Position numbers and translations under genes: made by a program
In this document: one piece after another, positions 6,327 to 54,825 of the stretch
How positions within the stretch are numbered: position 1 is the stretch's first letter
How the letters are laid out: every line of letters begins with the position of its first letter
Notes under the pieces: model-generated
Told to the model about the DNA's origin: nothing
The model's input: the letters and a program-made list of their open reading frames with translations, nothing else
The model's database searches: none
NCBI GenBank assembly: GCA_963667755.2
Contig: CAXXLK010000001.1
Coordinates: 1,501,862 to 1,565,861, forward strand
Reading direction: 5' to 3'
Source: Desulfobacterales bacterium
GTDB lineage: Bacteria; Desulfobacterota; Desulfobacteria; Desulfobacterales; 4572-123
Length of the DNA: 64,000 bases

Positions 6327-8141
6327 ATGGTGAAACGATTGACGATAGTTGCAACCCTCGGGCTGCTGTGCCTTTTTTTAAGTCTGCCGGCACTGTCCCT
6401 GGCAACCGAAGATCTGCCCGGGGGCCTGAAATGGCTGACCAATGATTCGGATCCGGTGTTTGCGTCCCCCGATGCCCGAAAAGGCGGCATCCTCCGCAAT
6501 GCCATACTCGATTTTCCCCTGACTTTCCGGGTGGTGGGACCGGACTCCAACAGCAGTTTCAGGGGTGCCATTTTAGGTAATCAGTTGGGTCTCATCGGGA
6601 TTCATCCCAACACCTTGAACACGATTCCCGAACTGGCGACCCACTGGGCCTATGGAAACGATAAAAAGACCATGTATTTCAAGCTGAACCCGAGGGCCCG
6701 CTGGTCCGACGGTGTGCCGGTGACAGCCGGTGATTTTGCCTTTACCCTGGAATTCATGCGCTCAAAACATATTGTGGCACCCTGGTATAACGATTACTAT
6801 ACCAAGGAGATCGAAAAGGTCATTATTTATGATGATCACACCCTGGCGGTGGTAAGCACCAAGGCCCAGCCGGACCTAAATCTGAAGCTGGGCCTCAGTC
6901 CTACGCCGCGTCATTTTTACGACACCCTGGACAAGGATTTTGTCAAAAAATACAACTGGAAAATTGTGCCCAATACCGGGGCCTACCAGATTTCAAAAGT
7001 CGAAAAAGGAAAGCAGGTCACCTTCAAGCGGAAAAAGGACTGGTGGGCAAAAGATCTGCGGTTTTTTAAACACCGGTTTAATGTGGACACGGTTAAATTT
7101 TCCGTGGTCCGGGATTACAACCTGCAGTGGGAATATTTTAAAAAGGGCCGGGTGGATGTCTTTTCCCTGGTCATGCCCAAGTTCTGGCATGTGCGCAGCC
7201 AAACACCGGTGGTGGAAGACGGGTATGTAAACCGGATATGGTTTTTTAACGATACCCAGCAATCGGCCATGGGGTTGTGGCTCAACCAGGACCGGGAGAT
7301 TTTCAAAGACCCCAATGTCCGGTATGCCTTTGCCCATGCCATGAATATCCAGAAGGTGATCGAGCAGGTGCTGCGCAATGATTATTTCAGGCTGGAGCAC
7401 GGGTTTGTGGGGTATGGCCCCTATTCCAACACCACGATAAGGGCCCGGCGGTTTGATCTTGAACGGGTGGACCACTATATGAAGGCCTCGGGTTGGCAGC
7501 GGGGTCCCGACGGGATATGGCAGAAAAATGATCATCGGTTTTCCGTGGAGGTCTCCTACAGCCAGGATGCCCATACGCCCCGGCTGGTGGTCTTAAAGGA
7601 AGAGGCCAAAAAAGCGGGTATTGAATTGCGACTCCAGCGCCTGGACCCGGCGGCCGCCTATAAAAAGGTCATTGAAAAAAAACACGACGTGGCCTGGATG
7701 GGCTGGAGTACATCTTTTCGGCCCCAGTACTGGGAGCATTTTCATTCAGTGAATGCGCACAAACCCCAGACCAACAATATCACCAACACGGATGATCCGG
7801 ACATGGACCGCCTCATCACTGCCTTTCGCGATTCTTTGGATGAGAACGAGCGGATCGAGCTGTCTCTTAAAATTCAGGCAAAAATTCATGCCATCGGCTG
7901 TTTTGTGCCGACCTTCATGGTACCCTATACCCGGGAGGCATACTGGCGCTGGTGGCGCCTGCCAGATGTCCCGGGGACCCGTGTTTCCGACAGTCTTTTC
8001 AGCCCCTTTGACAGCACCACCGGCGGCCTTTTCTGGTATGACAAGAAACTGTATGAGGAGACCCGAAAGGCGATGAAGCAGAAAAAGACATTTGCCCCGG
8101 TCACCATCATCGATGAAACGTTTAAAAAAGTTGAAAATTGA
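6327..8141 (+). CDS. Family-5 extracellular solute-binding protein (YejA/OppA-like)
   Basis: ORF 6267..8141. The start at 6327 gives the signal peptide MVKRLTIVATLGLLCLFLSLPALSLA and is preceded by AAAGGAA. Size and composition fit SBP_bac_5. Confidence 0.8.
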   Translation: MVKRLTIVATLGLLCLFLSLPALSLATEDLPGGLKWLTNDSDPVFASPDARKGGILRNAILDFPLTFRVVGPDSNSSFRGAILGNQLGLIGIHPNTLNTIPELATHWAYGNDKKTMYFKLNPRARWSDGVPVTAGDFAFTLEFMRSKHIVAPWYNDYYTKEIEKVIIYDDHTLAVVSTKAQPDLNLKLGLSPTPRHFYDTLDKDFVKKYNWKIVPNTGAYQISKVEKGKQVTFKRKKDWWAKDLRFFKHRFNVDTVKFSVVRDYNLQWEYFKKGRVDVFSLVMPKFWHVRSQTPVVEDGYVNRIWFFNDTQQSAMGLWLNQDREIFKDPNVRYAFAHAMNIQKVIEQVLRNDYFRLEHGFVGYGPYSNTTIRARRFDLERVDHYMKASGWQRGPDGIWQKNDHRFSVEVSYSQDAHTPRLVVLKEEAKKAGIELRLQRLDPAAAYKKVIEKKHDVAWMGWSTSFRPQYWEHFHSVNAHKPQTNNITNTDDPDMDRLITAFRDSLDENERIELSLKIQAKIHAIGCFVPTFMVPYTREAYWRWWRLPDVPGTRVSDSLFSPFDSTTGGLFWYDKKLYEETRKAMKQKKTFAPVTIIDETFKKVEN

Positions 8142-8156
8142 CTTGTAACTTGAAGC

Positions 8157-9170
8157 ATGGCACTTGAAACGCTGCATCCAAAAGGGAATCGTTACTTGAA
8201 ATCAGGCATTATTTTAGAGGTAAAAAACCTGGTGACAGCCTTTGAAACCGAAGAAGGCCGGGTCCGGGCCGTGGAGGATGTGGGATTTTCGGTGGCACCC
8301 GGCCAGACCCTGGGGATCGTGGGGGAGTCGGGGTGCGGAAAGAGTGTCACCGCACTGTCCATCATGCGGCTGTTGCCCAAACCCTCGGGCATCATCGAGA
8401 AAGGTCAGGTTCTTTTCCGGGGTACGGATATTCTCAGGCTTCCTGCCGATGAACTCCACGGGATCCGGGGTAATCGGATATCCATGATTTTCCAGGAGCC
8501 CATGACCGCCTTGAATCCGGTTCAAAAGATCGGGAAACAATTAAAAGAGGTCTTCTGGCTTCACTACCCCGACCTGACCGAACAGACGATACGGGAAAAA
8601 TCAATACAGATGTTGGATAAAGTCGGCATCTCCGAACCTGAGGCCCGGCTGAATGAATACATGCACCAGATTTCAGGGGGCATGCGTCAGCGGATCATGA
8701 TCGCCATGGCCCTTTTGTGTGAACCCGATATCCTCATTGCCGACGAACCCACCACGGCCCTGGATGTCACCATTCAGGCCCAGATCCTTGACCTGATCAA
8801 AAAAATGCAGCAGGACATGGGCATGGCGGTGATCTTTATTACCCACGACCTGGGGGTTATTGCCGAGGTCTGTGATGCTGTTCTGGTCATGTATGCGGGA
8901 AGAGTGGCTGAACAGGCACTTGTGGGGGAATTGTTCAAAAATCCCCTTCATCCGTATACCCGTGGTCTTTTATCATCGATTCCAAGGCTGGAAAGCCCCC
9001 GGAAGTCACTGTTGAAAACGATTCCGGGGATGGTGCCGAGCCTTCTTGACCTGCCCAAAGGGTGCCGGTTTCGAAACCGCTGCAACCATGCCATGGAAAA
9101 ATGTAAAACAGTGCCGCCGTTAAATGATGAGGGTGATAATCATCTGGTGGCGTGCCATTTGTATAAGTGA
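8157..9170 (+). CDS. Oligopeptide-type ABC transporter ATP-binding protein (OppD/DppD-like)
   Basis: Walker A GESGCGKS, signature SGGMRQR, Walker B ILIADEPTTALD, C-terminal oligopeptide-type extension (HPYTRGLL...CRFRNRC). Confidence 0.9.
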   Translation: MALETLHPKGNRYLKSGIILEVKNLVTAFETEEGRVRAVEDVGFSVAPGQTLGIVGESGCGKSVTALSIMRLLPKPSGIIEKGQVLFRGTDILRLPADELHGIRGNRISMIFQEPMTALNPVQKIGKQLKEVFWLHYPDLTEQTIREKSIQMLDKVGISEPEARLNEYMHQISGGMRQRIMIAMALLCEPDILIADEPTTALDVTIQAQILDLIKKMQQDMGMAVIFITHDLGVIAEVCDAVLVMYAGRVAEQALVGELFKNPLHPYTRGLLSSIPRLESPRKSLLKTIPGMVPSLLDLPKGCRFRNRCNHAMEKCKTVPPLNDEGDNHLVACHLYK

Positions 9171-21778: not shown

Positions 21779-22214
21779 ATACGGAACAAGGCTTATGCTT
21801 GATCTGGCGGTCAATGCGAAAGATAAACCGGTGCCCTTAGGGGATGTGTCCAAGCGTCAGAAAATTTCGCTGAAATATCTCGAACAGCTGATTTCAAAAC
21901 TCAAGCAGGCCGGTCTGGTGAAAAGCCAGCGCGGCCCGTTTGGCGGGCATATGCTGGACAAGCCCCCGGAGTGCATAACCGTGGGCGATATTGTAAGGAC
22001 ACTTGAGGAAACCTCCGCCATTACAGACTGCGCAGAGCAGGAGGGAAAACTGTGCGCCATCTGTAAAAATGCGGGGGATTGTCTTTCCCGCCAGGTCTGG
22101 ATCGAAGCCAGTAACGCCATGTTCGAACGCCTTGACCAGATTACCATCGATGGATTGATCTCGGGTAAATGGGGACAGTTTGAACCGGAAGAACCTTCAA
22201 AGGATGATGAATGA
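21756..22214 (+). CDS. Rrf2-family transcriptional regulator with Cys cluster
   Basis: MRLTTKSRYGTRLMLDLA...ISLKYLEQLISKLKQAGLVKSQRGPFGGHML is the Rrf2 wHTH signature. C-terminal cysteines (DCAEQEGKLCAICKNAGDC) are compatible with Fe-S ligation. ORF 21699.. overlaps the kinase gene end. Confidence 0.85.
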   Translation: MRLTTKSRYGTRLMLDLAVNAKDKPVPLGDVSKRQKISLKYLEQLISKLKQAGLVKSQRGPFGGHMLDKPPECITVGDIVRTLEETSAITDCAEQEGKLCAICKNAGDCLSRQVWIEASNAMFERLDQITIDGLISGKWGQFEPEEPSKDDE

Positions 22215-22291: not shown

Positions 22292-23022
22292 TCACAGGGG
22301 GGCCGTCAGGTCAGTAAAAGCTGGTCTGTTGAGGTATTTGGTGAGATTAGGCCTGCGGCCCCGAGAAATCCCGGCCACATCAGTAACAGCCACTGTTGGA
22401 GAGTAGGGAACCCAGACTATCAAAACAGCGGCACTTGAGAAGAGAAGCCCGCCTATGCTGGAGTAGATAAGGGTTGTAAGTGCGTTGTCGGTCCGGCAGA
22501 GAATACGCGTTGTGATCTGGGCACTCGCGTAAAAAATGACCAGCGAGCAGCGGCAGCACAGCAAATCCATTCAAAAACCCCCACTCCGGGACGCATGACG
22601 ATCACTACCCCTGAAAGTCCTATTGCGATGCCCCCCAGCGATATTTGCCCACGGTCTCTTTCAAGACAGGCGCAGAGAGTGCCGCCACGAACAGGGGGGA
22701 TGCGAAGGCGATTACCATGCAGTCGGCCAGGGGCATGAACTTCAATGCACCCCAGAATGCAACGCCCGCACTGAATATCAGAACAGACCGCAACATCTGG
22801 ATTATCAGTTTTTTGGTATAAATGATCCTCCGGGGGCTGCCACGAAAAAAGAAGACCATAACAAAAAGAAAGTGGAACAGATAACGACCCTATAGTATCA
22901 TCCACAGCGGAAGTTCACCGGTCAGGTATTTGGCAGAAGCATCCAGAAGGGAAAAACAGACCGTTATCGTGATTATAAAGCCGATGCCGGCCAGCGGGTT
23001 TGAACTTTTTTTTTCAAACATT
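22292..23022 (-). pseudogene. Decayed EamA/DMT-family transporter gene (in-frame stop, several frameshifts, truncated 3' end)
   Basis: Read from ATG 23022: MFEKKSSNPLAGIGFIITITVCFSLLDASAKYLTGELPLWMIL*. DMT-like sequence then continues across three frames (ORFs 22620..22859, 22453..22905, 22292..22570: ...FWGALKFMPLADCMVIAFASPLFVA...RWGGIAIGLSGVVIVMRPG...LVIFYASAQITTRIL...). Confidence 0.7.
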
Positions 23023-23230
23023 TAAAGGGCCATCCCGCGCTTACTCGTTGTCCGGGGTTTTTAGTAGTATCTCGAATGGTTGTCAATCCTTTTAATACCG
23101 ATTAACACCGATTTGTCGAAACAGGGCAGTATCCTTAAATCAGCAAATAGCGCTTGACATCTTAAATCAATTTCTGTAACCAATAATGATAATTTATTTA
23201 ATAGTTCAGGAAAAGCCATTACTTTATAGG

Positions 23231-23311
23231 ATGACTTCAATGATCAACTACCTTGCAGACAGATTTTCTTATTATTATTTTTTTACCATCTGTCTGCCTG
23301 TGGTGCGCTGA
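23231..23311 (+). CDS. Candidate Tyr/Phe-rich leader peptide of the aromatic operon (26 aa)
   Basis: ATG 23231 to TGA 23309-23311 encodes MTSMINYLADRFSYYYFFTICLPVVR, with five consecutive aromatic codons TAT TAT TAT TTT TTT at 23270-23284. It lies about 125 nt upstream of a DAHP synthase gene and directly upstream of terminator hairpins. The Shine-Dalgarno is weak (AGG adjacent to the ATG). Confidence 0.55.
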   Translation: MTSMINYLADRFSYYYFFTICLPVVR

Positions 23312-23334
23312 AGGAGTCCAACCAAGCAAAGCAA

Positions 23335-23370
23335 AAGCCGCGGCAGACAAAGCCCGCGGCTTTTTTATTT
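23335..23370 (+). terminator. Attenuator terminator 1 in the aro leader
   Basis: AAGCCGCGG (23335-23343) pairs with CCGCGGCTT (23354-23362) across a 10-nt loop, followed by TTTTTTATTTT. There is no upstream plus-strand gene for it to terminate. Confidence 0.65.
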
Positions 23371-23373
23371 TGA

Positions 23374-23417
23374 AAGGGCCGCGGGAGGCGAAAAACTTCC
23401 CCCGGCCCTTTTGCTTT
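23374..23417 (+). terminator. Attenuator hairpin/terminator 2 in the aro leader
   Basis: A GC-rich stem anchored by GGGCCG (23376-23381) / CGGCCC (23403-23408), followed by TTTTGCTTT. Its 5' arm GCCGCGGG (23378-23385) is also perfectly complementary to CCCGCGGC (23353-23360) of terminator 1. Confidence 0.55.
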
Positions 23418-23436
23418 CCCCAAAAAGGAGAGTACC

Positions 23437-24549
23437 ATGAATAAGACCTATGATGTTCACGTAAAGTCTTTTACCCCAATGATAGCCCCGGATCTGTTGA
23501 AAGAGGAGTTGCCCCTTTCCGAAAAGGCCGGAGATACGGTAATGAAGGGGCGGGCAGAGGTCCAAAATATTTTGAGGAAGAAAGACCATAGGTTATTAGT
23601 GGTGACAGGGCCGTGTTCCATTCATGATGAAGCGGCGGCATTGGATTATGCCCAGCGGTTGAAACGCTTGAGCAAAGCCGTGGAGGAGACCCTGGTGCTG
23701 GTGATGCGGGTTTATTTTGAAAAACCCCGAACCACCGTGGGGTGGAAAGGGCTGGCCAATGACCCCCTTTTAGATGGTACCTGCGATATGATGACGGGTC
23801 TTCGCAGGACACGGAAATTGTTGCTGGACATCACTGAAATGGGTGTGCCCACGGGTACGGAAATGCTCGATCCCATCACCCCGCAGTACATGGCCGGCCT
23901 GGTTTCATGGGCGGCCATCGGCGCCCGTACCACCGAGTCCCAGACCCACAGGGAGATGGCCTCGGGCCTTTCCATGCCCGTGGGGTTTAAAAATTGTACC
24001 GACGGTGGTCTTTCCACGGCCATCAATGCCATAATCGCGGCGGGGTCCCCCCAGAGTTTTCTGGGCATCGACCCCCACGGCCGGGCCAGCGTTGTCGCCA
24101 CCACCGGAAATCCCTATGCCCATCTCGTCATGCGGGGCGGGTTACGCCCCAATTATGATTCCGTCAGCATTCGTCAGGCAGTGAGCCAGTTGCAGAGCAA
24201 AGGATTATCCGATGCCGTCATCGTGGATTGCTCCCATGCCAATGCTTCTAAAAAACACGAGAACCAGGCCATTGTCTGGCAGGATGTCATCAATCAGAGG
24301 ATTGACGGCAATGACGCCCTGGTCGGGATGATGCTCGAGAGCAATATAGAAGAAGGCCGTCAGAAAAACACCGGCGATCTGAGTACCATGGCATATGGTG
24401 TATCTATCACGGACCCCTGCATTTCCTGGGATACCACTGAAAGGCTGCTGCGGACGGCCCATGAACAGCTGCTTCGAAACAGTAGCGCAAAAGCGGGCGG
24501 TAATGTGTCGACTAAAACTGGTCGATACTCCGTGGCATCTGGTGTCTGA
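23437..24549 (+). CDS. aroG: 3-deoxy-7-phosphoheptulonate (DAHP) synthase, class I-alpha (AroF/G/H type)
   Basis: 370 aa. LLVVTGPCSIHDEAAALDYAQRL, GLSMPVGFKN and IVDCSHANS are hallmark class I DAHP synthase motifs. Isozyme specificity cannot be read from the sequence. Confidence 0.9.
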   Translation: MNKTYDVHVKSFTPMIAPDLLKEELPLSEKAGDTVMKGRAEVQNILRKKDHRLLVVTGPCSIHDEAAALDYAQRLKRLSKAVEETLVLVMRVYFEKPRTTVGWKGLANDPLLDGTCDMMTGLRRTRKLLLDITEMGVPTGTEMLDPITPQYMAGLVSWAAIGARTTESQTHREMASGLSMPVGFKNCTDGGLSTAINAIIAAGSPQSFLGIDPHGRASVVATTGNPYAHLVMRGGLRPNYDSVSIRQAVSQLQSKGLSDAVIVDCSHANASKKHENQAIVWQDVINQRIDGNDALVGMMLESNIEEGRQKNTGDLSTMAYGVSITDPCISWDTTERLLRTAHEQLLRNSSAKAGGNVSTKTGRYSVASGV

Positions 24550-24595
24550 CACGGTGTTTTTGAAGAAATGTTTATTTCGATGGGAGTTGCAAAAG

Positions 24596-25624
24596 ATGGA
24601 TATCCTTGAAATTAATGGCAGTACAGGGAAATCAAGGTTGCTTGTGGGGGAAAAGCTTGATCGCCTTGCCGGGTATTTGCCGTCATCCCCGGTGATCGTG
24701 ATCACCGATGACACGGTCCACCGCCTTTACGGGGGCCGGTTCCCCGACGGCCATACTATAAAGATCGGCGCCGGGGAGACTATTAAAACCCTGGACACAG
24801 TGACGGCGATTTTTTCAAAATTAATCGAGTACGAAGCGGATCGATCGGCGTTTATTGTCGGCATTGGCGGTGGCATTGTTTGTGATATCGCCGGTTTTGC
24901 GGCGTCGACCTATCTTCGGGGGGTCCGTTTCGGGTTTGTCCCCACCACGTTGCTGGCCCAGGTGGATGCCAGTGTCGGCGGGAAGAACGGGGTCAATTTT
25001 TCCGGTTACAAGAATATGGTGGGGGTATTCAATCAGCCTGAGTTTGTTATCTGTGATCCCTCATTGCTTCAAACCCTTGATGTGCAGAACCGCGGGTGCG
25101 GGTTGGCTGAAATCGTTAAACATGCGGTCATTGCCGATGTTGATCTGTTTGCCTATATCGAGAATAATGTCGAAGCCGTTATGGCCATGACCGTTGATGC
25201 CGTCCACCGGATGGTTTACGATTCGGTGATCATCAAGTCGGGGATCGTCAATCGGGATGAAAAAGAATCCGGTGAGCGGCGTAAACTCAATTTCGGTCAT
25301 ACCTTCGGGCATGCTGTGGAAAAGGTCGGCAAGGTACCTCACGGCGAAGCGGTGTCCATGGGTATGATGGTGGCTGCAGCCCTTTCCGCCCGGCGAGGAT
25401 ATATCAACCCCGGCGATGTTCAGCGACTGGACCGGCTTCTGAAGGCCTTGAAACTGCCCACCCGCCTTGATATTGCCAGGGATAAAGCCTTTGAAGCAAT
25501 GAAACGGGATAAAAAAAGGGTCGGGGATGCCATTCATTTTGTTCTGCTCGAACGGATCGGCCGGGCGGTTGTCGAAGAAATTTCCATGGCGGAATTAAAG
25601 GATGTCATAAATGAATTTTGCTGA
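24596..25624 (+). CDS. aroB: 3-dehydroquinate synthase
   Basis: ORF 24395..25624. A start at ATG 24596 (MDILEINGS...) avoids overlap with aroG. GIGGGIVCDIAGFAASTYLRGVRFGFVPTTLLAQVDASVGGKNGVN and HTFGHAVE are AroB motifs. Confidence 0.9.
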   Translation: MDILEINGSTGKSRLLVGEKLDRLAGYLPSSPVIVITDDTVHRLYGGRFPDGHTIKIGAGETIKTLDTVTAIFSKLIEYEADRSAFIVGIGGGIVCDIAGFAASTYLRGVRFGFVPTTLLAQVDASVGGKNGVNFSGYKNMVGVFNQPEFVICDPSLLQTLDVQNRGCGLAEIVKHAVIADVDLFAYIENNVEAVMAMTVDAVHRMVYDSVIIKSGIVNRDEKESGERRKLNFGHTFGHAVEKVGKVPHGEAVSMGMMVAAALSARRGYINPGDVQRLDRLLKALKLPTRLDIARDKAFEAMKRDKKRVGDAIHFVLLERIGRAVVEEISMAELKDVINEFC

Positions 25625-26477
25625 TGATGCCAGCACCAATCACATGAAAAATATTGCAGATCAGTCCCAGACCCAGTTGTGCGGGGTGTTCGGGCATCCG
25701 GTAGGGCACAGCCTCAGCCCGGCCATTCACAATGCGGCATTCCGGGAAACCGGGCTTAACGGGATTTACCTGGCATTTGACGTCACGGACCTTTCATCTG
25801 CAGCAGCCGGTATTCGGGCGCTGAATATCCTCGGGGTCAGCATTACCATTCCGCATAAAGTCAGTATCATGGAATATCTCGATACGTGCACGCCCATGGC
25901 CATGGCGATTGGTGCCGTAAATACCGTTATCAACCGGGATGGGCATCTTACAGGGGATAACACGGACGGGTTGGGGGCGGTATCGGCCCTTGCGGCACAA
26001 ACGATTATAGCGGATCGTCGGGTGGCTGTCATCGGCGCCGGCGGTGCGGCCCGGGCCGTCACCGCTGCCATTCGATCCAGTGGCGGGAACCTGACGGTGG
26101 TCAACCGATCGGTTAAACGGGGAGAGGCCCTGGCCGCGGTCGTGAATGCCGATTTCATACCCCTTGCTGAATTTGCGGGCAACGGATATGATATTCTGGT
26201 AAATACCACATCAGTGGGGATGACGCCCCATACTGACGCCATGCCCACTGATCCGGCACGATTCGAGCCGGAAGCGGTGGTGATGGATATTGTTTACAAT
26301 CCGCTTGAAACCCGATGGCTTCGCGCGGCAAAAAAACGGGGATGCACGGTGATAGATGGTCTGGCCATGTTCGTCCATCAGGGCGCCCTTCAATTTGAGC
26401 TCTGGACCGGCCGGGCGGCCCCCCGGGCTGTGATGCGATCGGCTGTTATGGAATCGTTAGGATATACGGATGCTTGA
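25611..26477 (+). CDS. aroE: Shikimate dehydrogenase
   Basis: HSLSPAIHNAAF, SITIPHK, NTDGLG and GAGGAARAV are AroE motifs. An alternative start is at 25644. Confidence 0.9.
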   Translation: MNFADDASTNHMKNIADQSQTQLCGVFGHPVGHSLSPAIHNAAFRETGLNGIYLAFDVTDLSSAAAGIRALNILGVSITIPHKVSIMEYLDTCTPMAMAIGAVNTVINRDGHLTGDNTDGLGAVSALAAQTIIADRRVAVIGAGGAARAVTAAIRSSGGNLTVVNRSVKRGEALAAVVNADFIPLAEFAGNGYDILVNTTSVGMTPHTDAMPTDPARFEPEAVVMDIVYNPLETRWLRAAKKRGCTVIDGLAMFVHQGALQFELWTGRAAPRAVMRSAVMESLGYTDA

Positions 26478-27729
26478 AATTAAGCCCATTGAAACGCTGA
26501 CGGCACGGGTGGTGGTACCCGGATCCAAAAGCTACACCCACCGGCTGTTGATTGCCTCGGCCCTGTCCGACGGCCCCTGCCGGGTTTTGGGCGCTCTGGA
26601 AAGTGAGGATACGGATCTGACCCGGGCCGGGCTCATGCAAATGGGGGTCCCCATCACAAAGGAAGGGGAGGGGCTGCGCATCAACGGCACTGGCGGACGA
26701 TTGATCGGTGCCGGCGAGATCTACCTTGCCAATTCCGGTACCGGCATGCGTCTGTTGACGGCGGTGGCGACCCTGGCCGACGGGCCGACGGTTCTCACCG
26801 GCAGCACCCGGATGCAGCAGCGACCCGTTGCAGATCTCATCGACGGACTTGGACAGATGGGTGCGGATATTCGATCCTTAAACGGCACGGGGTGTCCGCC
26901 GGTGGCGGTCACGGGGGGAACGGCCACCGGCGGTGAAATCACCCTGCGCTGTGGTATCAGCAGTCAATATTTGTCTGCCATTCTCCTGGTTGGGCCGCTT
27001 ACCCCCCGGGGTGTCACCATCCATATTGTCGAGGGCCCGGTGTCCAGGCCTTACATCGATTTGACCCTGGATGTCATGGAACGGCTCGGGGTGAGGGTAG
27101 ACCGGGAAGGATATGACCGGTTTACCGTCCCCGGCGGGCAGGTGTATCGGGCCGGAGACTACCGGGTTGAGACCGATGCCTCCAATGCCTCTTATTTCTG
27201 GGCTGCGGCAGCCGTCACCGGCGGGTGTGTGACGGTGGACGGCCTGACCGAATCATCCCGGCAGGGAGATTTACGTCTGCTCGACTGTTTTGAAAAGATG
27301 GGATGCCAGGTGGATCGCGGTGTTAACGGCATCACTGTGACCGGCGGTCACCTGTCGGCCATTGATGTGGATATGGGGGACATGCCGGATATGGTGCCCA
27401 CCCTTGCCGTGGTGGCGGCGTGTGCCGAGGGTACCACGGCCATTCGAAATGTGGCGCACCTGAAAGCCAAGGAATGCGACCGGCTCGCTGCCGTTGCTGA
27501 AGAACTGGGCAAAATAGGTATCGCCGCCCGATGTACGCCAGATGCCCTTTTTGTGACCGGCGGCCCGCTGCACGGAGGGGACATCGAAACCTACAACGAT
27601 CACCGCATGGCCATGTGTTTCAGTGTGGCAGGATTGCGGGTACCCGGGGTCCGGATCATGGATGAAAACTGTGTGGCCAAATCTTTTCCAACCTATTGGG
27701 ATGTGTTCAGCACATTGTATGCCCGATGA
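26470..27729 (+). CDS. aroA: 3-phosphoshikimate 1-carboxyvinyltransferase (EPSP synthase)
   Basis: 419 aa. VPGSKSYTHRLLIASALS, NSGTGMRLL and NDHRMAMCFSV are EPSPS motifs. Confidence 0.9.
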   Translation: MLEIKPIETLTARVVVPGSKSYTHRLLIASALSDGPCRVLGALESEDTDLTRAGLMQMGVPITKEGEGLRINGTGGRLIGAGEIYLANSGTGMRLLTAVATLADGPTVLTGSTRMQQRPVADLIDGLGQMGADIRSLNGTGCPPVAVTGGTATGGEITLRCGISSQYLSAILLVGPLTPRGVTIHIVEGPVSRPYIDLTLDVMERLGVRVDREGYDRFTVPGGQVYRAGDYRVETDASNASYFWAAAAVTGGCVTVDGLTESSRQGDLRLLDCFEKMGCQVDRGVNGITVTGGHLSAIDVDMGDMPDMVPTLAVVAACAEGTTAIRNVAHLKAKECDRLAAVAEELGKIGIAARCTPDALFVTGGPLHGGDIETYNDHRMAMCFSVAGLRVPGVRIMDENCVAKSFPTYWDVFSTLYAR

Positions 27730-28253
27730 ATATCTATCTGATCGGATATCGCTGTACCGGTAAGACCACTGTGGGATATAGCCTTGCCGAAAAACTACAT
27801 CGGCCGTTTATTGATGCGGATGCCGTCGTCGCCCGGCAATACCATATGTCCATCACGGAAATGGTGGAGCGATACGGCTGGCCTTGTTTCCGGGGCCGGG
27901 AAAGGGCCAACATCAAGCAGCTGTGCCGTCAACCGGGCCAGGTCGTTGCCACCGGCGGCGGGGTAATTCTCGATCCTTCCAATGTATCCCAAATGCGTGA
28001 CACAGGAACGGTTGTCTGGCTTCGGGCCGGTGTGGAAACAATCCAAGAAAGAATGGCTGCAGATGCCGCAACCGACGGTCAACGACCGGTGTTGACCGAA
28101 AAAGGGTTAATGGCCGAAATTGAACAAACCCTGAATGACAGATACCCGCTTTATCTTGCTGCCGCCCATATCAGTGTGGACACCGATCACCGTACAATAG
28201 ATGCGCTATGTGGGGAAATCATTAAAAAATTATCCGGTGATAATTTTAAATAA
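27726..28253 (+). CDS. aroK: Shikimate kinase
   Basis: MNIYLIGYRCTGKTTVG (P-loop) ...VVATGGGVIL. The ATG overlaps the aroA stop (ATGA at 27726-27729). Confidence 0.85.
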   Translation: MNIYLIGYRCTGKTTVGYSLAEKLHRPFIDADAVVARQYHMSITEMVERYGWPCFRGRERANIKQLCRQPGQVVATGGGVILDPSNVSQMRDTGTVVWLRAGVETIQERMAADAATDGQRPVLTEKGLMAEIEQTLNDRYPLYLAAAHISVDTDHRTIDALCGEIIKKLSGDNFK

Positions 28254-28461
28254 TATCTGAATGAAAAGTGTTTTTCTATCATTTTTAATACATTATGAAT
28301 TCGTAAACGTTATTTGAGATGGCTAAATATAAAATCTTCTTATACAAGGCATAGTGATTTTACAGGGACGAAGGCAACCATATGGTATGTCGAGTCTCTG
28401 GGAAAGCGCTATAACGCAGTAGATGGAGATTTTTATGACGCCATCAATATTGAGAGGGGTT

Positions 28462-29538
28462 ATGTCCAGTACATTCGGAACGTTATTCCGTATCTCCACA
28501 TTTGGTGAATCCCATTGCAAAGGCGTCGGCGTGATTGTCGACGGATGCCCACCGAAACTGCCTCTGACCGAGGCCGATGTTCAGATCCAACTGGATCGGC
28601 GAAGACCCGGGCAGAGTCCGCTCACCACCCAGCGGAATGAATCGGACCGTGTAACCATTTATGCCGGGACGGAAAACGGACTGACCCTGGGCACGCCCAT
28701 TGCCATGATGGTCCCCAATAAAGACCAGCGTCCGCATGACTACGGGGAGATGCGGTTTATTCCCCGGCCCTCCCATGCCGATTTTACGTATCAGATGAAG
28801 TACGGCATCCGGGCGTCGTCGGGGGGTGGGCGATCCAGTGCCAGGGAAACCATCGGCCGGGTGGCCGCCGGTGCCGTAGCGGAAAAATACCTTCTGGAGG
28901 CCTTGGGGATCGAGATCGTGGCCTGGGTTTCAACGGTGGGCAGTGTGACGGCCCCCGAGCTCGAAGAACAGGCGATGACACGGGCGGATGTGGATGCTTT
29001 TGCCGTTCGCTGTCCCCACGGTGAAACCGCCGGTCGCATGACAGATGCCATTGTAGCCGCAAAAGAGGCGTCCGACTCCATCGGCGGCGTTGTTTCCTGC
29101 ATCTGCCGGAATGTGCCCGCTGGTCTCGGGGAACCGGTTTTCGACAAACTGGAGGCCAAACTGGCCCATGCCATGCTGTCTATTCCTGCCACCAAAGGGT
29201 TCGAGATCGGTTCCGGGTTTGCCGGTACCCGTATGCGGGGTTCACAACATAATGATCCCTTTGAAATGAAGGACGGGCGATTGGGCACCAGAACAAATTA
29301 CAGCGGCGGCATTCAGGGGGGGATCTCCAACGGTGAACCCATAGGGTTTAAGGTGGCCTTCAAACCCCCTGCCACCATTGGCCAGGCCCAGCAGACAACG
29401 GATTTTGAAGGGGAAGAGGCCGTGATTGAAGCCAGGGGGCGCCATGATCCCTGTGTGGTGCCGCGGGCCGTTCCTATTGTGGAGAGCATGGCGGCCCTGG
29501 TGCTGGCGGATATGGTGCTGATTCAGAAGATGCGGTGA
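28462..29538 (+). CDS. aroC: Chorismate synthase
   Basis: ORF 28423... The start at 28462 gives [31 protein letters not shown], the canonical AroC N-terminus, and is preceded by GAGAGGGG. RPGHADF-like PSHADFTY and SARETIGRV motifs are present. Confidence 0.9.
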
Positions 29539-29715
29539 TCATCAGGGTTGTCTGCGGCGGATTTTGTGGAAACGACCGTTGTGGCCGTGACACCCGGAGA
29601 GATTCCTGGTACAATCGACATGGCCGCATCTGTTTTTGTTGTTGATGGAAAGATATTCAAAAAAGTCTGGGACAACGGGTCCGGACCATTACGAAAAGGA
29701 TGCAATAGTTCTGAT

Positions 29716-30453
29716 ATGATCGGTATCATCGGTTTCGGAAGATTCGGCAAACTCATGGCCGGATATCTTTCAAGGGATTTTAACGTCAAGGTGTATAACC
29801 GGAGTGATAAGCGGGCAGAGATTGAAGCGGCGGGTGCCGTTTCAGTTTCTTTAGCGGAAGCCTGCCGCCAGAAGGTGGTGATTCTCAGCGTGCCCATCTC
29901 CACCATGCAGGTGATGTTGACAAAAATCGCCCCCATGCTGCGCAAGGATGCCGTCGTAGCAGATGTCTGCTCGGTCAAGGTTTACCCGGTACAGTGGATG
30001 CGGGATCTTCTGCCCGAATCGGTATCTCTGGTGGCCACCCATCCCATGTTCGGCCCGGACAGCGCCGCGGATTCTCTTCATAACGGAAAGATCGTTGTAT
30101 GCAAGGTTCGCATGAGTGATGCCCGATTTTCCAGAATCAAGCGGTACCTGACCGGCAAGGGACTCATCGTTATCGATTCCACCCCCGAGGCCCATGACCG
30201 GCAGATTGCCGTCAGCCTGTCCCTGACCCATTTTATCGGCCGGGCACTGGATGAATTCAGCGCCGAAGAGTTGATCATCGATACCGAGGGGTACAAGCGG
30301 CTGCTGCATATCCTCGGCGTTGTTACCCATGATACATGGCAGCTGTTTGCGGACATGCATCATTACAACCCCTATGCCAAAGAAAAACGCCAGGCGTTCA
30401 TGGCGGCCATGGCGCGACTGGAGGAGAAACTCACAAAAGGAGATTCCCCATGA
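29716..30453 (+). CDS. tyrA: Prephenate dehydrogenase
   Basis: IGIIGFGRFGKLMA (Rossmann GxGxxG) and ATHPMFGPDSA are TyrA motifs. The ORF is open from 29548, so the start is uncertain (29620 or 29716). Confidence 0.8.
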   Translation: MIGIIGFGRFGKLMAGYLSRDFNVKVYNRSDKRAEIEAAGAVSVSLAEACRQKVVILSVPISTMQVMLTKIAPMLRKDAVVADVCSVKVYPVQWMRDLLPESVSLVATHPMFGPDSAADSLHNGKIVVCKVRMSDARFSRIKRYLTGKGLIVIDSTPEAHDRQIAVSLSLTHFIGRALDEFSAEELIIDTEGYKRLLHILGVVTHDTWQLFADMHHYNPYAKEKRQAFMAAMARLEEKLTKGDSP

Positions 30454-31754
30454 TTTTATGCACATCCCTTTGGCGGTTTTGTTGCACCTGTTTTCTGGCC
30501 GGCCTGGCGGTGAGCCTGTTGAGCGGGTGCATTCAGCCAAGACCTTATCCACATCAACCGTTACCTTCGCATCAGCAGCCACCATCGCATCAACCTGATT
30601 ATCCGGTGATTGGGAATCTTCACGCCGACGGCCCTCATGTTTATTACAATCATCGGCCGACCAGCGGTGGCCAACCCATTCGAAGCGGGGACAATGTCTC
30701 CACCGGGGAAAACAGCCGCGCAACGGTACGACTGATAAACGGCGGCGTGGTGACCATCGATCAGAACACCGATCCTGATTTTTTTAAAGACGCATGGTGT
30801 ATCCTCGTTACCATTTTTAAAGGGCAGGTCGCTACGGATGGTTCCGGAATTTGCATTGAAACGCCCCATGTCTATGGATTGGCCAATTCCAAAGTCAATA
30901 TTGTTGTGACGGATCACGAAACCATCATCACTGTATTATCCGGCACTGTGACGATGGAACGACCGGTTAATCGAATCCTGCAACGACATCAACAGGCGCG
31001 GGTATCCAGGAGCGGGATTCAATCGGTCCGTTCGCTTTCCGCCAGCCAGCTGAAGTCTGTTTTTCCGTGGTGCGATTCAAGGTCTGGCCGGCAAAGGGAT
31101 CCCAGAATCGTGCAATGCCGTCGCTACGCTGAAACAGCGGTTTCCCAGCAGAAGGAGAACCTCCGCCGCGGTTGCCGGTTCAAAGGCAGCGACTGGTCAG
31201 CTGATTTCAATCATCATTATGATTGGTGCCTGAAGGTTCCCCCGTCCCGGGCAGATGCGGCCAACCGTGCCCGTGCAGAGACACTCAAACGTAACTGCGC
31301 ACCGGCACCCCAGGCAAACAAGCGGCAGCAATGCCGTCGCTATGCTGAAACAGCGGTTTCCCAGCAGAAGGAGAACCTCCGTCGCGGTTGCCGGTTCAAA
31401 GGCAGCGACTGGTCAGCTGATTTCAATCATCATTATGATTGGTGCCTGAAGGTTCCCCAGGCCCGAGCAGATGCGGCCAACCGTGCCCGTGCAGAGACAC
31501 TCAAACGTAACTGCGCGCCGGCACCCCAGGCAAACAAGCGGCAGCAATGCCGTCGCTATGCTGAAACAGCGGTTTCCCAGCAGAAGGAGAACCTCCGTCG
31601 CGGTTGCCGGTTCAAAGGCAGCGACTGGTCAGCTGATTTCGATTATCATTATGATTGGTGCCTGCAGGTTCCCCCGTCCCGGGCAGATGCGGCCAACCGG
31701 GAACGTGATAAAAGTTTGAAAAAATGTCAAAAACCGGGACCGATGCTCTACTGA
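30450..31754 (+). CDS. Lipoprotein with a FecR-like N-terminal region and three tandem 72-aa four-cysteine repeats
   Basis: The ATG at 30450 overlaps the tyrA stop (ATGA). The signal peptide with lipobox is MILCTSLWRFCCTCFLAGLAVSLLSGC. GDNVSTGENSRATVRLINGGVVTIDQNTD resembles FecR/DUF4974-type beta-sandwich regions. The unit QCRRYAETAVSQQKENLRRGCRFKGSDWSADFNHHYDWCLKVP..RADAANRARAETLKRNCAPAPQANKRQ occurs three times. Confidence 0.7.
   Translation: MILCTSLWRFCCTCFLAGLAVSLLSGCIQPRPYPHQPLPSHQQPPSHQPDYPVIGNLHADGPHVYYNHRPTSGGQPIRSGDNVSTGENSRATVRLINGGVVTIDQNTDPDFFKDAWCILVTIFKGQVATDGSGICIETPHVYGLANSKVNIVVTDHETIITVLSGTVTMERPVNRILQRHQQARVSRSGIQSVRSLSASQLKSVFPWCDSRSGRQRDPRIVQCRRYAETAVSQQKENLRRGCRFKGSDWSADFNHHYDWCLKVPPSRADAANRARAETLKRNCAPAPQANKRQQCRRYAETAVSQQKENLRRGCRFKGSDWSADFNHHYDWCLKVPQARADAANRARAETLKRNCAPAPQANKRQQCRRYAETAVSQQKENLRRGCRFKGSDWSADFDYHYDWCLQVPPSRADAANRERDKSLKKCQKPGPMLY
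31113..31754 (+). repeat. Three tandem 216-bp coding repeats (units start at 31113, 31329, 31545)
   Basis: The period is exactly 216 nt. By manual alignment, units 1 and 2 differ at only a handful of positions. Unit 3 diverges in its last approximately 50 nt. Confidence 0.9.
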
Positions 31755-52354: not shown

Positions 52355-52469
52355 TAAAAACGTATAGGGCAAAAGGCGAGCGGTCTAAAAATCGAGATGG
52401 TTGCACTTGACAGGCCCTTAAAGGGTGTGTTACCAAAAGACCATTACGTACCAACCAAAGGGCATTCAA

Positions 52470-52556
52470 ATGAACACAGCACAAACAGCCGGTCGTCTAT
52501 TTTATTGTTTTTTTCGCTTCTTTTTTAGCTTTAGAAGCGTCCATCTGGTTGTTTAG
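52470..52556 (+). CDS. Candidate Phe-rich leader peptide of the aroF-pheA operon (28 aa)
   Basis: ATG 52470 (AAGGG about 8 nt upstream) to TAG 52554-52556 encodes MNTAQTAGRLFYCFFRFFFSFRSVHLVV. There are 7 Phe and 1 Tyr in 11 consecutive codons (52500-52532). A hairpin cascade and terminator follow. Confidence 0.65.
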   Translation: MNTAQTAGRLFYCFFRFFFSFRSVHLVV

Positions 52557-52580
52557 CGCGTTTTCTCGATCGTAAAATAC

Positions 52581-52609
52581 CCGGGTGGACCCAATCAAGA
52601 TCCACCCGG
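52581..52609 (+). promoter_or_regulatory. Attenuator hairpin (segments 2:3) of the pheA-type leader
   Basis: CCGGGTGGA (52581-52589) pairs perfectly with TCCACCCGG (52601-52609). Each arm has an alternative partner (52540-52548 and 52627-52635). Confidence 0.55.
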
Positions 52610-52623
52610 AACATGGTTATCAA

Positions 52624-52665
52624 GGCTCCGGGAGGAAAATTTTCCGGGGCCTTTTTTTATTTTCG
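52624..52665 (+). terminator. Attenuator terminator of the pheA-type leader
   Basis: GGCTCCGGG (52624-52632) pairs with TCCGGGGCC (52643-52651), including two G-U pairs, followed by TTTTTTTATTTT. Confidence 0.7.
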
Positions 52666-52818: not shown

Positions 52819-53691
52819 ATGAAAAATCTCAAACTAGCTTCCCGGACCGCAAAAACACGCACGGTGGTCAAGGTTTCCCAGATAAGCGTCGGCAAGGATC
52901 TGGTGGTGATTGCCGGCCCCTGCAGTGTGGAAAGTGAGGCGCAGACCCTTGAAACCGCCCGTGCGGTCAAACGGGCAGGGGCCGACATGATTCGCGGCGG
53001 TGCCTTTAAACCGCGCACTTCCCCTTATGCCTTCCAGGGGCTGGGACTCGAGGGGCTCAAGATTCTGGAAAAGGCCAGTCGGGAAACGGGCCTGCCCATT
53101 GTAACGGAGGTGCTGGACCCCCGGGACGTTTCCTGGGTGGCCGAATTTGCCGATGTCCTGCAGATCGGTACGCGCAATATGCAGAATTATTCCCTGCTCC
53201 GGGAGGTGGGGCGGGCCGGCCGGCCGGTGCTGCTCAAACGCGGCATGTATTCCACCCTGGAAGAATGGCTCAACTGCGCCGAGTACATCCTCAGTGAGGG
53301 CAACCCGGACGTTATTCTGTGTGAACGCGGTATTCGCACCTTTGAAAAATACACACGCAACACCCTGGATCTGAGCGCCGTCCCGGCCCTTCGAGAACTG
53401 ACCCACCTGCCCATCATCGTCGACCCGACCCACAGCACCGGCCGGCTCAGCCTGATCGGGCCCATGAGTCTGGCCGCTGTGGCGGCCGGTGCGGACGGAC
53501 TGATTATCGAGGTCCACAACAATCCTGAAAAGGCCCTTTGTGATGCGGACCAGGCTTTGACCCCGGTGATGTTTGCAGATATCATGCGGCGCCTGCGGCC
53601 CCTGAAAACCTTTATGGACCAGAGTGCCGGGAAGCCGGATGATTCAGTGCACGGACATTCGGGACCTGAAAATACCCGAAACGTAGAATGA
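52819..53691 (+). CDS. aroF: DAHP synthase, class I-beta (AroF/KDO8PS-like type)
   Basis: [48 protein letters not shown] and [10 protein letters not shown] are class I-beta motifs. Confidence 0.88.
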
Positions 53692-53760: not shown

Positions 53761-54825
53761 ATGAATCTTTCTGAAATCAGAAAAAATATCGACAAAATAG
53801 ACCGTGAATTGCTGGTATTGCTTCAAGAGCGCATGGGAATGGCCCTTCGTTCAAAAAAATTCAAACAGGCTGTCAGCGATCCCGAGCGGGAGGAAAATAT
53901 GCTGGCGCGAATTGAGCGACTGAACCTGGATCTCATGGATCGTCCTTTTACCCGGCATTTGCTCAAAACCATCATTGCGGAAAGCAAACGGCTTCAGGAG
54001 GAAGATCGGCCTCTTGTGGCGTTTCAGGGCGAACACGGCGCCTACGGCGAAGTGGCTTCCCGCCAACTGGTCCCGGGGGGGGCCTACATCCCGTGTATGG
54101 AATTCAACGATGTTTTCCAGGGGGTTGAAAAAGGGCATTTCGATCTGGGGGTGGTGCCGGTGGAAAATTCTCTGGAAGGTGCCGTCACCCAGGTGAACGA
54201 TTTGTTGACCACAACTAACTTAAAGGTCATCGGGGAGACAAAAGTGGCCGTGATGCACTGCCTGCTGGCTACCGCTGATACGGATTACCGTGAAATACGG
54301 CAGGTCTACTCCCATCCCCAGGCCCTGGCCCAGTGCCGTGGTTTCTTGAATCGCAACAAGCTGGAGCCCCGACCCTATTATGACACCGCCGGCGCTGCTA
54401 AAATGCTGGCCCGTGAAAATCCAAGGGCCGCGGCGGCCATTGCCAGTTCGTTGAGTGCTGAACTGTATAACCTGGAAATTATCAAGAGTGGCATCGAAGA
54501 CGGCGTGTCCAATTCAACCCGGTTCCTGTTGCTTTCCCGAAAGCCTTGCGTGGACCGTGGCGAAAAAACATCCATTATTTTTATCACAGCCCACGAGGCC
54601 GGGCAATTGTACCGGGTGCTGCGTCTGTTTGCTGAAGCCGATATCAATTTGTCCCGCATCGCGTCCATGCCCCTGCGTACAGATCCGGGCAATTACAGTT
54701 TTTTCCTGGATTTTGAAGCCTCTGAACAGGAAGAACGGGCCGCAGCCGTGCTCCGGAAGATGGGGGAAATGACCATCTCCTTAAAATGTCTGGGCAGCTA
54801 CCCGGCGGACCGGGCACTGGTTTGA
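53761..54825 (+). CDS. pheA: Bifunctional chorismate mutase / prephenate dehydratase (P-protein)
   Basis: N-terminal CM_2 (LSEIRKNIDKIDRELLVLLQERM), PDT domain (VAFQGEHGAYGEVA...VPVENSLEGAV...YSHPQALAQC) and C-terminal ACT domain (TSIIFITAHEAGQLYRVL...NLSRIASMP). Confidence 0.9.
   Translation: MNLSEIRKNIDKIDRELLVLLQERMGMALRSKKFKQAVSDPEREENMLARIERLNLDLMDRPFTRHLLKTIIAESKRLQEEDRPLVAFQGEHGAYGEVASRQLVPGGAYIPCMEFNDVFQGVEKGHFDLGVVPVENSLEGAVTQVNDLLTTTNLKVIGETKVAVMHCLLATADTDYREIRQVYSHPQALAQCRGFLNRNKLEPRPYYDTAGAAKMLARENPRAAAAIASSLSAELYNLEIIKSGIEDGVSNSTRFLLLSRKPCVDRGEKTSIIFITAHEAGQLYRVLRLFAEADINLSRIASMPLRTDPGNYSFFLDFEASEQEERAAAVLRKMGEMTISLKCLGSYPADRALV

Follow-up and report, generated by a model that had tools for sequence, protein, structure and literature searches.

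Attenuators of the kind found before the trp, pheA, pheST and his genes of Escherichia coli couple the progress of a ribosome on a short leader open reading frame (ORF) to the choice between alternative hairpins in the growing RNA. In the his leader of Salmonella and E. coli, this choice is relayed along a chain of helices, with A:B, C:D and E:F opposing B:C and D:E. The subject of the present study is an element of this kind in a stretch of 64,000 nucleotides (nt) from a Desulfobacterales bacterium (contig CAXXLK010000001.1, forward strand), which is referred to as the window. The element lies directly upstream of aroG and is very likely a ribosome-mediated transcription attenuator, which, judging from its sequence and modeled folds, would make the expression of aroG-aroB-aroE-aroA-aroK-aroC-tyrA depend on how much charged tRNA-Tyr and tRNA-Phe is available. 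Since the mechanism itself is textbook, the advance lies in scope and cataloguing and not in principle; what varies is the relay through two terminators and the combination of a shared core with different sensors.

The E. coli pheL-pheA leader (Rfam family Phe_leader, RF01859) and the pheST leader likewise consist of a short ORF with aromatic codons, hairpins 1:2, 2:3 and 3:4, and an intrinsic terminator before an aromatic-pathway gene. The window element differs from pheL-pheA in its codons, which are mainly those for Tyr and Phe (with Trp present in the leaders of 31 of 48 relatives) instead of Phe alone, in its target, which is a common-pathway operon ending in tyrA and not pheA, and in possessing two terminators instead of one. 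Phe_leader was the best, though insignificant, correct-strand match in Rfam 15, with 20.2 bits (E = 4.1) against a gathering score of 55, and the element is therefore not a member of that family. The his leader is similar in architecture, being also a six-segment chain in which the inner segments have two partners and the position of the ribosome is relayed to the last hairpin. However, its last helix is the only terminator, whereas in the window the middle helix 3:4 also carries a full U-tract, which results in two consecutive terminators, and its sensor codons differ. The His_leader family (RF00514) reached 20.1 bits against a gathering score of 49, and this on the minus strand. No Rfam 15 family attained its gathering score anywhere in the window; this includes T-boxes and ligand riboswitches, none of which was matched even at E values up to 10 between 22000 and 25000.

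The closest functional precedent, compared here by its published description, belongs to another phylum, the Actinobacteria. It is the aroR-aroF attenuator of Corynebacterium glutamicum, in which a leader with Phe and Tyr codons precedes a 3-deoxy-D-arabino-heptulosonate 7-phosphate (DAHP) synthase as the first gene and stalling raises read-through (Neshat et al., 2014, as summarized in PMC11802643). According to the same source, its sensor is just Phe-Tyr-Phe and responds to Phe, not to Tyr (PMC11802643). For the Desulfobacterota, Gurvich et al. (2011; PMC3082878) mention in passing that Desulfobacterium autotrophicum may regulate pheA by a pheL-like leader; the mention is about pheA rather than the aroG operon and is silent on structure, family and distribution. 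A full-text literature search found no description of a leader for a Desulfobacterota aro operon, although an earlier mention may exist; Rodionov et al. (2004) do not mention such a leader, and Naville and Gautheret (2010) do not mention aro genes. A preliminary description of the locus had supposed such an element to be undescribed for a Desulfobacterota aro operon, which agrees with the outcome of the Rfam and literature searches, but the C. glutamicum and D. autotrophicum precedents have to be added to it.

The predicted switch comprises the features below, in which a helix is named after the two segments that form it and the lengths of helices are given in base pairs (bp).

23155-23183, plus strand: putative promoter of the leader transcript, with the -35 element TTGACA (23155-23160), a 17-nt spacer and the -10-like hexamer TAACCA (23178-23183)
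23228-23311, plus strand: leader gene, with the Shine-Dalgarno sequence AGGA (23228-23231), ATG at 23240, 23 sense codons and the stop codon TGA (23309-23311)
23270-23284, plus strand: sensor codons TAT TAT TAT TTT TTT, as seen in the sequence
23247-23264, plus strand: segment 1, ACUAC (23247-23251) plus GCAGACAGAU (23255-23264); pairs with segment 2
23288-23304, plus strand: segment 2, AUCUGUCUGCC-U-GUGGU; pairs with segment 1 or segment 3
23334-23349, plus strand: segment 3, with AAAGCCGCGG as the 5' arm of terminator 1 and GGCAGACA as its loop, the whole being the 3' strand of 2:3
23353-23367, plus strand: segment 4
23371-23388, plus strand: segment 5
23396-23411, plus strand: segment 6
23334-23371, plus strand: terminator 1 (3:4), stem 23334-23343 with 23354-23363, then UUUUUUAUUUU
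23353-23385, plus strand: antiterminator 4:5, a 15-bp hairpin CCCGCGGCUUUUUUA / UGAAAGGGCCGCGGG (23353-23367 with 23371-23385)
23373-23420, plus strand: terminator 2 (5:6), 23373-23381 with 23403-23411 and 23383-23388 with 23396-23401, then UUUUGCUUU

In the proposed mechanism, transcription would proceed from the promoter, and the 23-codon leader would be translated as RNA polymerase moves ahead. When Tyr and Phe are plentiful, the ribosome would reach the UGA at 23309-23311 and cover segment 2; when the leader is not translated, segment 1 would hold segment 2. With segment 2 unavailable in either case, 3:4 would form as terminator 1 and 5:6 as terminator 2, and transcription would stop before aroG. 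A shortage of charged tRNA-Tyr or tRNA-Phe would make the ribosome stall in the YYYFF run and cover segment 1, leaving segment 2 free to pair with segment 3 (13 bp), a pairing that would withdraw the larger part of the 5' arm from terminator 1. Segment 4, freed by this pairing, would then pair with segment 5 (15 bp) and disable terminator 2. As 2:3 and 4:5 would form in a chain, a single stall would carry the polymerase past both terminators. That transcription ends at the U-tracts, that the ribosome stalls and that the outcome depends on amino acid supply is inferred from a set of features which were all found in silico: an ORF with its own Shine-Dalgarno sequence, a cluster of cognate codons, intrinsic terminators, an antiterminator that depends on the position of the ribosome, and a 1:2 protector. 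The alternative pairings, energies, conservation and covariation of these elements were likewise determined in silico, as set out in the following.

Folding of positions 23200-23440, which the preliminary description had proposed as a check, gave -87.8 kcal/mol against -59.8 kcal/mol for shuffled sequences (z = -6.2; 0 of 200 shuffles were as stable). The unconstrained fold consists of 1:2, 3:4 and 5:6. The core of 1:2 pairs GCAGACAGAT (23255-23264) with ATCTGTCTGC (23288-23297), is extended by 23247-23251 with 23300-23304 and, in the minimum-energy fold, holds the aromatic codons in its loop. In the model, 1:2 is the protector hairpin, which would hold segment 2 when the leader is untranslated, and it possibly also acts as a pause hairpin. 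The competing 2:3 duplex of 13 bp has an energy of -24.0 kcal/mol (z = -3.6 against shuffles) and occupies seven of the ten bases in the 5' arm of terminator 1; the corresponding family means are -21.9 kcal/mol and 7.7 of 11 arm bases. The 4:5 hairpin takes in the U-tract of terminator 1, and the hairpin of terminator 2 has an energy of -26.7 kcal/mol. All five pairings 1:2, 2:3, 3:4, 4:5 and 5:6 were thus found, which corresponds to a relay architecture of the his type (at least five segments).

Most of these segments had been recognized in the preliminary description, and all those listed there lie where it placed them; only segment 1 (GCAGACAGAT, 23255-23264) had been missed. The pair which that description called S0 (TGTCTGCC, 23291-23298) and S0' (GGCAGACA, 23342-23349) forms the core of the longer 2:3 helix, which reaches 13 bp through the additional pairing of GUGGU (23300-23304) with GCCGC (23337-23341). 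The two helices which it called terminator-like are borne out: A:B, with GC-rich arms at about 23335-23343 and 23353-23362 followed by TTTTTTATTTT, is the terminator 1 stem that is paired in 99.7% of the alignment cells considered below, and C:D, formed by GCCGCGGG (23378-23385) and CGGCCC (23403-23408) followed by TTTTGCTTT, is predicted independently by RNAalifold as terminator 2. For the alternative helix B:C, a perfect match of 8 bp had been claimed; the reverse complement of GCCGCGGG is indeed CCCGCGGC (23353-23360), but the helix is really a 15-bp hairpin.

The effect of ribosome position was simulated by masking the RNA from its 5' end to 14 nt past the first base of the A-site codon and refolding the remainder. 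Whichever of the three Tyr codons occupies the A-site, the fold of lowest energy is 2:3, even after terminator 1 has been transcribed in full (-28.0 kcal/mol). Terminator 1 forms when the ribosome has reached the stop codon or when none is present. For the Tyr codons, the simulation thereby reproduces the earlier proposal that a ribosome at the Tyr/Phe codons would free S0 for S0', and it also reproduces its counterpart, namely that a ribosome at the stop codon would cover S0 so that A:B forms. When 2:3 is in place and segment 6 is still untranscribed, the 15-bp hairpin 4:5 forms.

The leader peptide, MINYLADRFSYYYFFTICLPVVR, contains seven aromatic residues among its 23. In addition to the run TAT TAT TAT TTT TTT, which had been correctly located at 23270-23284, it includes the aromatic codons TAC (23249-23251) and TTT (23264-23266). 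In an alignment of 49 sequences of the leader and switch, the conserved start column corresponds to ATG at 23240 in the window and to GTG in many relatives; a GGA-type Shine-Dalgarno sequence and the spacing from segment 2 to the stop codon are conserved as well. A start at ATG 23231, which underlay an earlier reading of the leader as 26 codons, was rejected. The frame is indeed open from there to the TGA at 23309-23311, but this ATG lies partly within the Shine-Dalgarno sequence and corresponds to ATA in L001, a relative with 98% identity in AroG, and the leader therefore has 23 codons and not 26.

YYYFF is the sole run of five aromatic residues in all six frames of the window. Since composition-preserving shuffles of the window yield 0.5 such runs on average, this count is weak evidence by itself. 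The leaders of 48 relatives are 18-27 residues long (mean 24), with averages of 4.5 Tyr, 2.9 Phe and 0.7 Trp, and they use TAT for 84% of their Tyr codons and TTT for 89% of their Phe codons, compared with about 54-59% for the window's aro genes. Beyond the aromatic run, peptide sequence differs from relative to relative. The GTCTGCC of segment 2 is nearly invariant, and its reading frame differs by lineage, giving either C-L-P or S-A-W, which argues that the constraint acts on the RNA and not on the peptide. Conservation of the C-terminal LPGVR at the peptide level was considered and rejected on the same grounds, since Syntrophobacteraceae read the same nucleotides as SAWRVR in another frame.

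The decisive evidence that the element exceeds chance is the conservation of the whole arrangement in relatives. A scan with the AroG protein, using one genome per GTDB species, returned 80 loci. Of these, 57 belong to Desulfobacterales, Desulfatiglandales (including strain NaphS2) and Syntrophobacterales, 56 of them with upstream sequence; the other 23 are from Gammaproteobacteria, Verrucomicrobiota, Planctomycetota, Desulfuromonadales, Geobacteraceae and unclassified Deltaproteobacteria. A leader, defined as a short ORF with at least five aromatic residues in seven, precedes aroG in 53 of the 56 Desulfobacterota loci, and in 54 upon inclusion of L028, whose weaker YYGYY version was also detected by a covariance model trained solely on aroG-linked sequences. 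The earlier claim of a leader peptide with aromatic codons thus extends to nearly all of these loci, among which AroG identity falls as low as 62%. The leader lies some 170 nt 5' of aroG; in most of these loci its ORF ends 86-153 nt before the gene, and in two it ends 257-278 nt before it. No comparable leader was seen at that position in any of the 23 loci of other phyla and of Desulfuromonadales/Geobacteraceae, and the covariance model gave no significant match in the 10 of these loci which were searched with it. In L055, one of the two leaderless Desulfobacterota loci, aroG lies inside an aroE-aroA-aroK-aroC-aroG cluster and not at its head, a gene order which fits an attenuator that marks the start of an operon. 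As the genes after aroG vary by lineage, the constant unit is the leader together with aroG.

Alignment of the orthologous aroG upstream regions, another check that had been suggested, shows that the aromatic run is conserved and that the stems covary. Covariation was counted per sequence and not per evolutionary event, and helices were compared with controls in which the partner columns were slid out of register. Terminator 1 is paired in 99.7% of cells and contains three compensatory pairs (AU/GC, GC/AU and CG/UA). Terminator 2, present in 36 of the 49 aligned relatives, is paired in 78% of cells, with compensatory changes at 11 of its 15 pairs. RNAalifold predicts both terminators when no structure is supplied. 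The antiterminator pairings are similarly conserved: 2:3, the former S0:S0', is paired in 84-92% of cells, and 4:5, the former B:C, in 91% (in the 36 relatives with terminator 2), against 31-54% in the slid controls. Of the six core pairs of 1:2, five can form in 86-100% of the 49 sequences and the remaining one in 57%. The 4:5 helix also covaries with the arms of terminator 1, since a change from C to U in segment 3 is accompanied by G to A in segment 4 and C to U in segment 5. At the columns concerned (column 90 with column 121 of alignment A2, the latter in segment 5), GC occurs in 22 sequences, AU in 9, GU in 5 and an unpaired state in 0; column 121 is a bulge in 5:6. Furthermore, L012 has a matching change across segments 1, 2 and 3.

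The second hairpin takes other forms in some relatives. In seven that make up one lineage (L027, L030, L036, L038, L039, L045 and L049), its 5' arm resembles that of terminator 1 (ACCGCAGG...) and no U-tract follows. In six others (L018, L021, L024, L026, L052 and L053), a second hairpin is not clearly recognizable and the stretch up to aroG is shorter.

Upstream of the leader, the alignment of 25 sequences over 140 nt shows TTGACA to be identical in all 25 relatives, with a TA..CA hexamer always 17 nt further on and an A-rich stretch 5' of TTGACA. Transcription of the leader would accordingly start from this conserved promoter, as its sequence suggests. A generic promoter scan of 22400-24000 reported no promoter, and the conserved one emerged only upon aligning the relatives; the scan overlooked it because the -10 element lacks a T at position 6.

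The core of the switch is not confined to aroG. Metagenome contigs were scanned with a pattern derived from segments 2 and 3, which returned 80 loci. Of these, 28 have an aromatic ORF and a U-tract; the other 52, with neither, were dismissed as chance matches, and the covariance model rejects them too. Although trained on aroG-linked sequences only, this model separates these 28 loci from the chance ones and finds members before other genes at E = 1e-6 to 1e-21. The classes of leader, the genes which follow them and their scores in this model are as follows.

Tyr/Phe/Trp leader before aroG: 12 metagenome loci, 51-116 bits
Tyr/Phe/Trp leader before 2-amino-3,7-dideoxy-D-threo-hept-6-ulosonate (ADH) synthase (TIGR01949, 365 bits): L087, L092, L136 and L147, 76-97 bits
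Phe-only leader (FFxFFxFF) before the binding protein of a LIV-type ABC transporter: L093, L096, L113 and L118, 37-49 bits
Phe-only leader before acyl-CoA ligase: L132, 57 bits
YYYY leader before molybdopterin oxidoreductase: L089, 106 bits
WWW leader before trpE-G-D-C-F...A: L123, minus strand, about 7940-8190, 35.6 bits, E = 2e-6

ADH synthase is the entry enzyme of an alternative shikimate route and is unrelated to DAHP synthase. The WWW leader of L123, MISEQKNIFINALRNWWWLSSKLGASLP, contains three Trp codons, is followed by two terminator-like hairpins, and shares its contig with an aroG attenuator located 5 kb downstream. The LIV-type assignment is a weak NCBIfam match under the cut-off. 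Phe-only FFxFFxFF leaders before a LIV-type binding protein were seen also in L116, L131, L135 and L139. The molybdopterin oxidoreductase of L089 has no obvious tie to aromatic amino acids.

These loci had to match the core pattern in order to be picked, which in part accounts for the core being present in them; the match between codon content and gene function does not stem from this selection. As far as the sequences indicate, the codon content of the leaders tracks the regulated function. There is about an even chance that the leaders belong to a Desulfobacterota-wide, uncatalogued attenuator superfamily. Such a superfamily would re-use one six-segment relay, usually with two consecutive terminators, and swap only the codon sensor, with Tyr/Phe/Trp leaders before DAHP or ADH synthase, WWW before trp, and Phe-only leaders before the LIV-type ABC binding protein, thus providing an RNA-based aromatic regulon in place of TyrR and TrpR. 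In enterobacteria, that role is held by these two protein repressors. The Desulfobacterota, a sulfate-reducing and syntrophic group of environmental importance that is little studied and hard to culture, would probably sense charged tRNA via leader peptides rather than via repressors of the TyrR/TrpR type. The RNA family could be added to annotation resources, and its leaders can help to assign the functions of neighboring genes; the transporter behind the Phe-only leaders, for example, is predicted to be linked to the supply of Phe. Moreover, the two-terminator relay represents a clean natural case of one stall being passed along a chain of helices, and may serve as a tight amino-acid-responsive switch.

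The window itself appears to contain a second leader-peptide attenuator, on the plus strand at 52407-52660. A promoter, TTGACA-17-TTACCA (52407-52435), precedes a Phe-rich leader of 28 codons, eight of them for Phe (MNTAQTAGRLFYCFFRFFFSFRSVHLVV, 52470-52556). A relay hairpin without U-tract follows at about 52582-52611, and then a strong terminator (52624-52660) about 160 nt 5' of a short second DAHP synthase (52819-53691) and pheA (53761-54825, chorismate mutase-prephenate dehydratase). When inspected by eye, its segments appear to pair alternately in the manner of the his leader. The genome thus appears to place one DAHP synthase and tyrA under a Tyr-rich leader, and another DAHP synthase and pheA under a Phe-rich leader. 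The leader at 52470 and the pheL-like leader mentioned for D. autotrophicum are probably the same sort of element.

Several observations weigh against the aroG attenuator as modeled above. With the assumed footprint of 14 nt, a ribosome whose A-site holds either of the two Phe codons covers part of segment 2, and terminator 1 is favored; the window leader may therefore answer mainly to Tyr, or the footprint may be overly generous, and an edge of 12 nt would release segment 2 for the first Phe codon. Once all six segments are transcribed, 2:3 with 5:6 has a slight energetic advantage over 2:3 with 4:5 (-55.5 against -52.2 kcal/mol), so that passage through terminator 2 would depend on folding kinetics, with 4:5 persisting briefly. 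Terminator 2 itself has an interrupted U-tract (UUUUGCUUU) and is missing from 13 of the 49 aligned relatives. The -10 element of the promoter is weak, with two of six matches to TATAAT. As to covariation, independent events are few among the changes counted per sequence, and just one or two may account for the AU variant at the three-way position.

The strong conservation of the core could also be read as the mark of a factor acting in trans (for instance an RNA-binding protein, a tRNA or a small ligand), which would read the core GUCUGCC / GGCAGAC and the GCCGC.GGC arms and leave the leader ORF a secondary role. Segments 2 and 3 are in fact unusually constant, down to 62% AroG identity and across different operons, where simple helices usually drift more. 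However, having two partners per segment already limits drift, and the codon runs vary with function while the core stays constant, as a ribosome sensor predicts. Together with the conserved start codon, Shine-Dalgarno sequence and distance from segment 2 to the stop codon, and with the lack of any Rfam family at gathering score in the window or of a T-box or riboswitch even at E up to 10, this makes such a factor very unlikely. A related possibility is that the terminated leader RNA or the 23-residue peptide acts in trans in addition to the cis attenuator, for which PMC7298713 and PMC7968998 provide a precedent in rnTrpL/peTrpL of Sinorhizobium meliloti. The strongly conserved core sequence would suit an RNA of this type, but the peptide is not conserved outside its aromatic run and its C-terminus is read in different frames; we consider an added function in trans barely plausible.

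Alternatively, the same hairpins might serve the aro genes in a simpler way. If they were constitutive tandem terminators or RNA stabilizers, the aromatic ORF would be a chance product of an AT-rich spacer, and the aro operon would be unregulated at this point. The five-aromatic run, insignificant alone at 0.5 per shuffle, is compatible with this, as intergenic DNA rich in AT can be expected to contain TTT and TAT. Yet ORF start, aromatic run and stop position are kept in 54 of 56 loci despite a diverging peptide, the antiterminator pairings are conserved and covary, and constant terminators after a conserved promoter would silence an essential pathway, all of which leaves constitutive hairpins with hardly any probability. 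Control might, on the other hand, act chiefly on the translation of aroG, with alternative folds exposing or hiding its ribosome-binding site. The fold of lowest energy joins the U-tract of terminator 2 to an A-rich stretch and part of the GGAG before aroG, and the second hairpin lacks a U-tract in seven relatives. This pairing matches a U-run to an A-run, and the alignment shows no conserved helix there; a third hairpin that would conceal the ribosome-binding site was accordingly rejected as a conserved feature. Moreover, practically every member has, in terminator 1, a canonical GC stem with a long U-tract, and the U-tract of terminator 2 is found in most of the 36 relatives carrying it, so that control chiefly at translation is highly improbable.

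The genes that the attenuator would regulate occupy 23427-30453, beginning with the aroG Shine-Dalgarno sequence GGAGAG (23427-23432), and were assigned with Pfam and NCBIfam.

23437-24549, plus strand: aroG, class I DAHP synthase (NCBIfam TIGR00034, 462 bits)
about 24593 (inferred start) to 25624, plus strand: aroB, 3-dehydroquinate synthase
25611-26477, plus strand: aroE, shikimate dehydrogenase
26470-27729, plus strand: aroA, 5-enolpyruvylshikimate-3-phosphate (EPSP) synthase
to 28253, plus strand: aroK, shikimate kinase
28423-29538, plus strand: aroC, chorismate synthase
29548-30453, plus strand: tyrA, prephenate dehydrogenase

These genes are tightly spaced or overlapping, and no convincing plus-strand terminator was found within the stretch from aroG to tyrA, which suggests that they form one operon. 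A tblastn search found no trp genes in the window.

On the other side of the leader, the closest upstream plus-strand gene encodes an Rrf2-family regulator and ends at 22214. The idea that the hairpins terminate transcription of an upstream plus-strand gene was rejected, since only minus-strand fragments of an EamA-type gene lie between that gene and the leader, and the conserved promoter at 23155-23183 follows them; the statement in the preliminary description that no plus-strand gene lies upstream for the terminators to serve is thus upheld. The minus-strand gene, which diverges from the aro leader (22292-23021), looks like one for an EamA-type transporter split into three ORF fragments of 43, 79 and 92 residues in different frames, with a Pfam EamA match (E = 1e-4) on the middle fragment, and may be a pseudogene or reflect sequencing errors.

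Just after tyrA, the ORF at 30336-31754, which encodes 472 residues with no Pfam family above threshold, contains a 216-nt tandem repeat on the plus strand (31112-31699), present in 2.7 copies of 96% identity.

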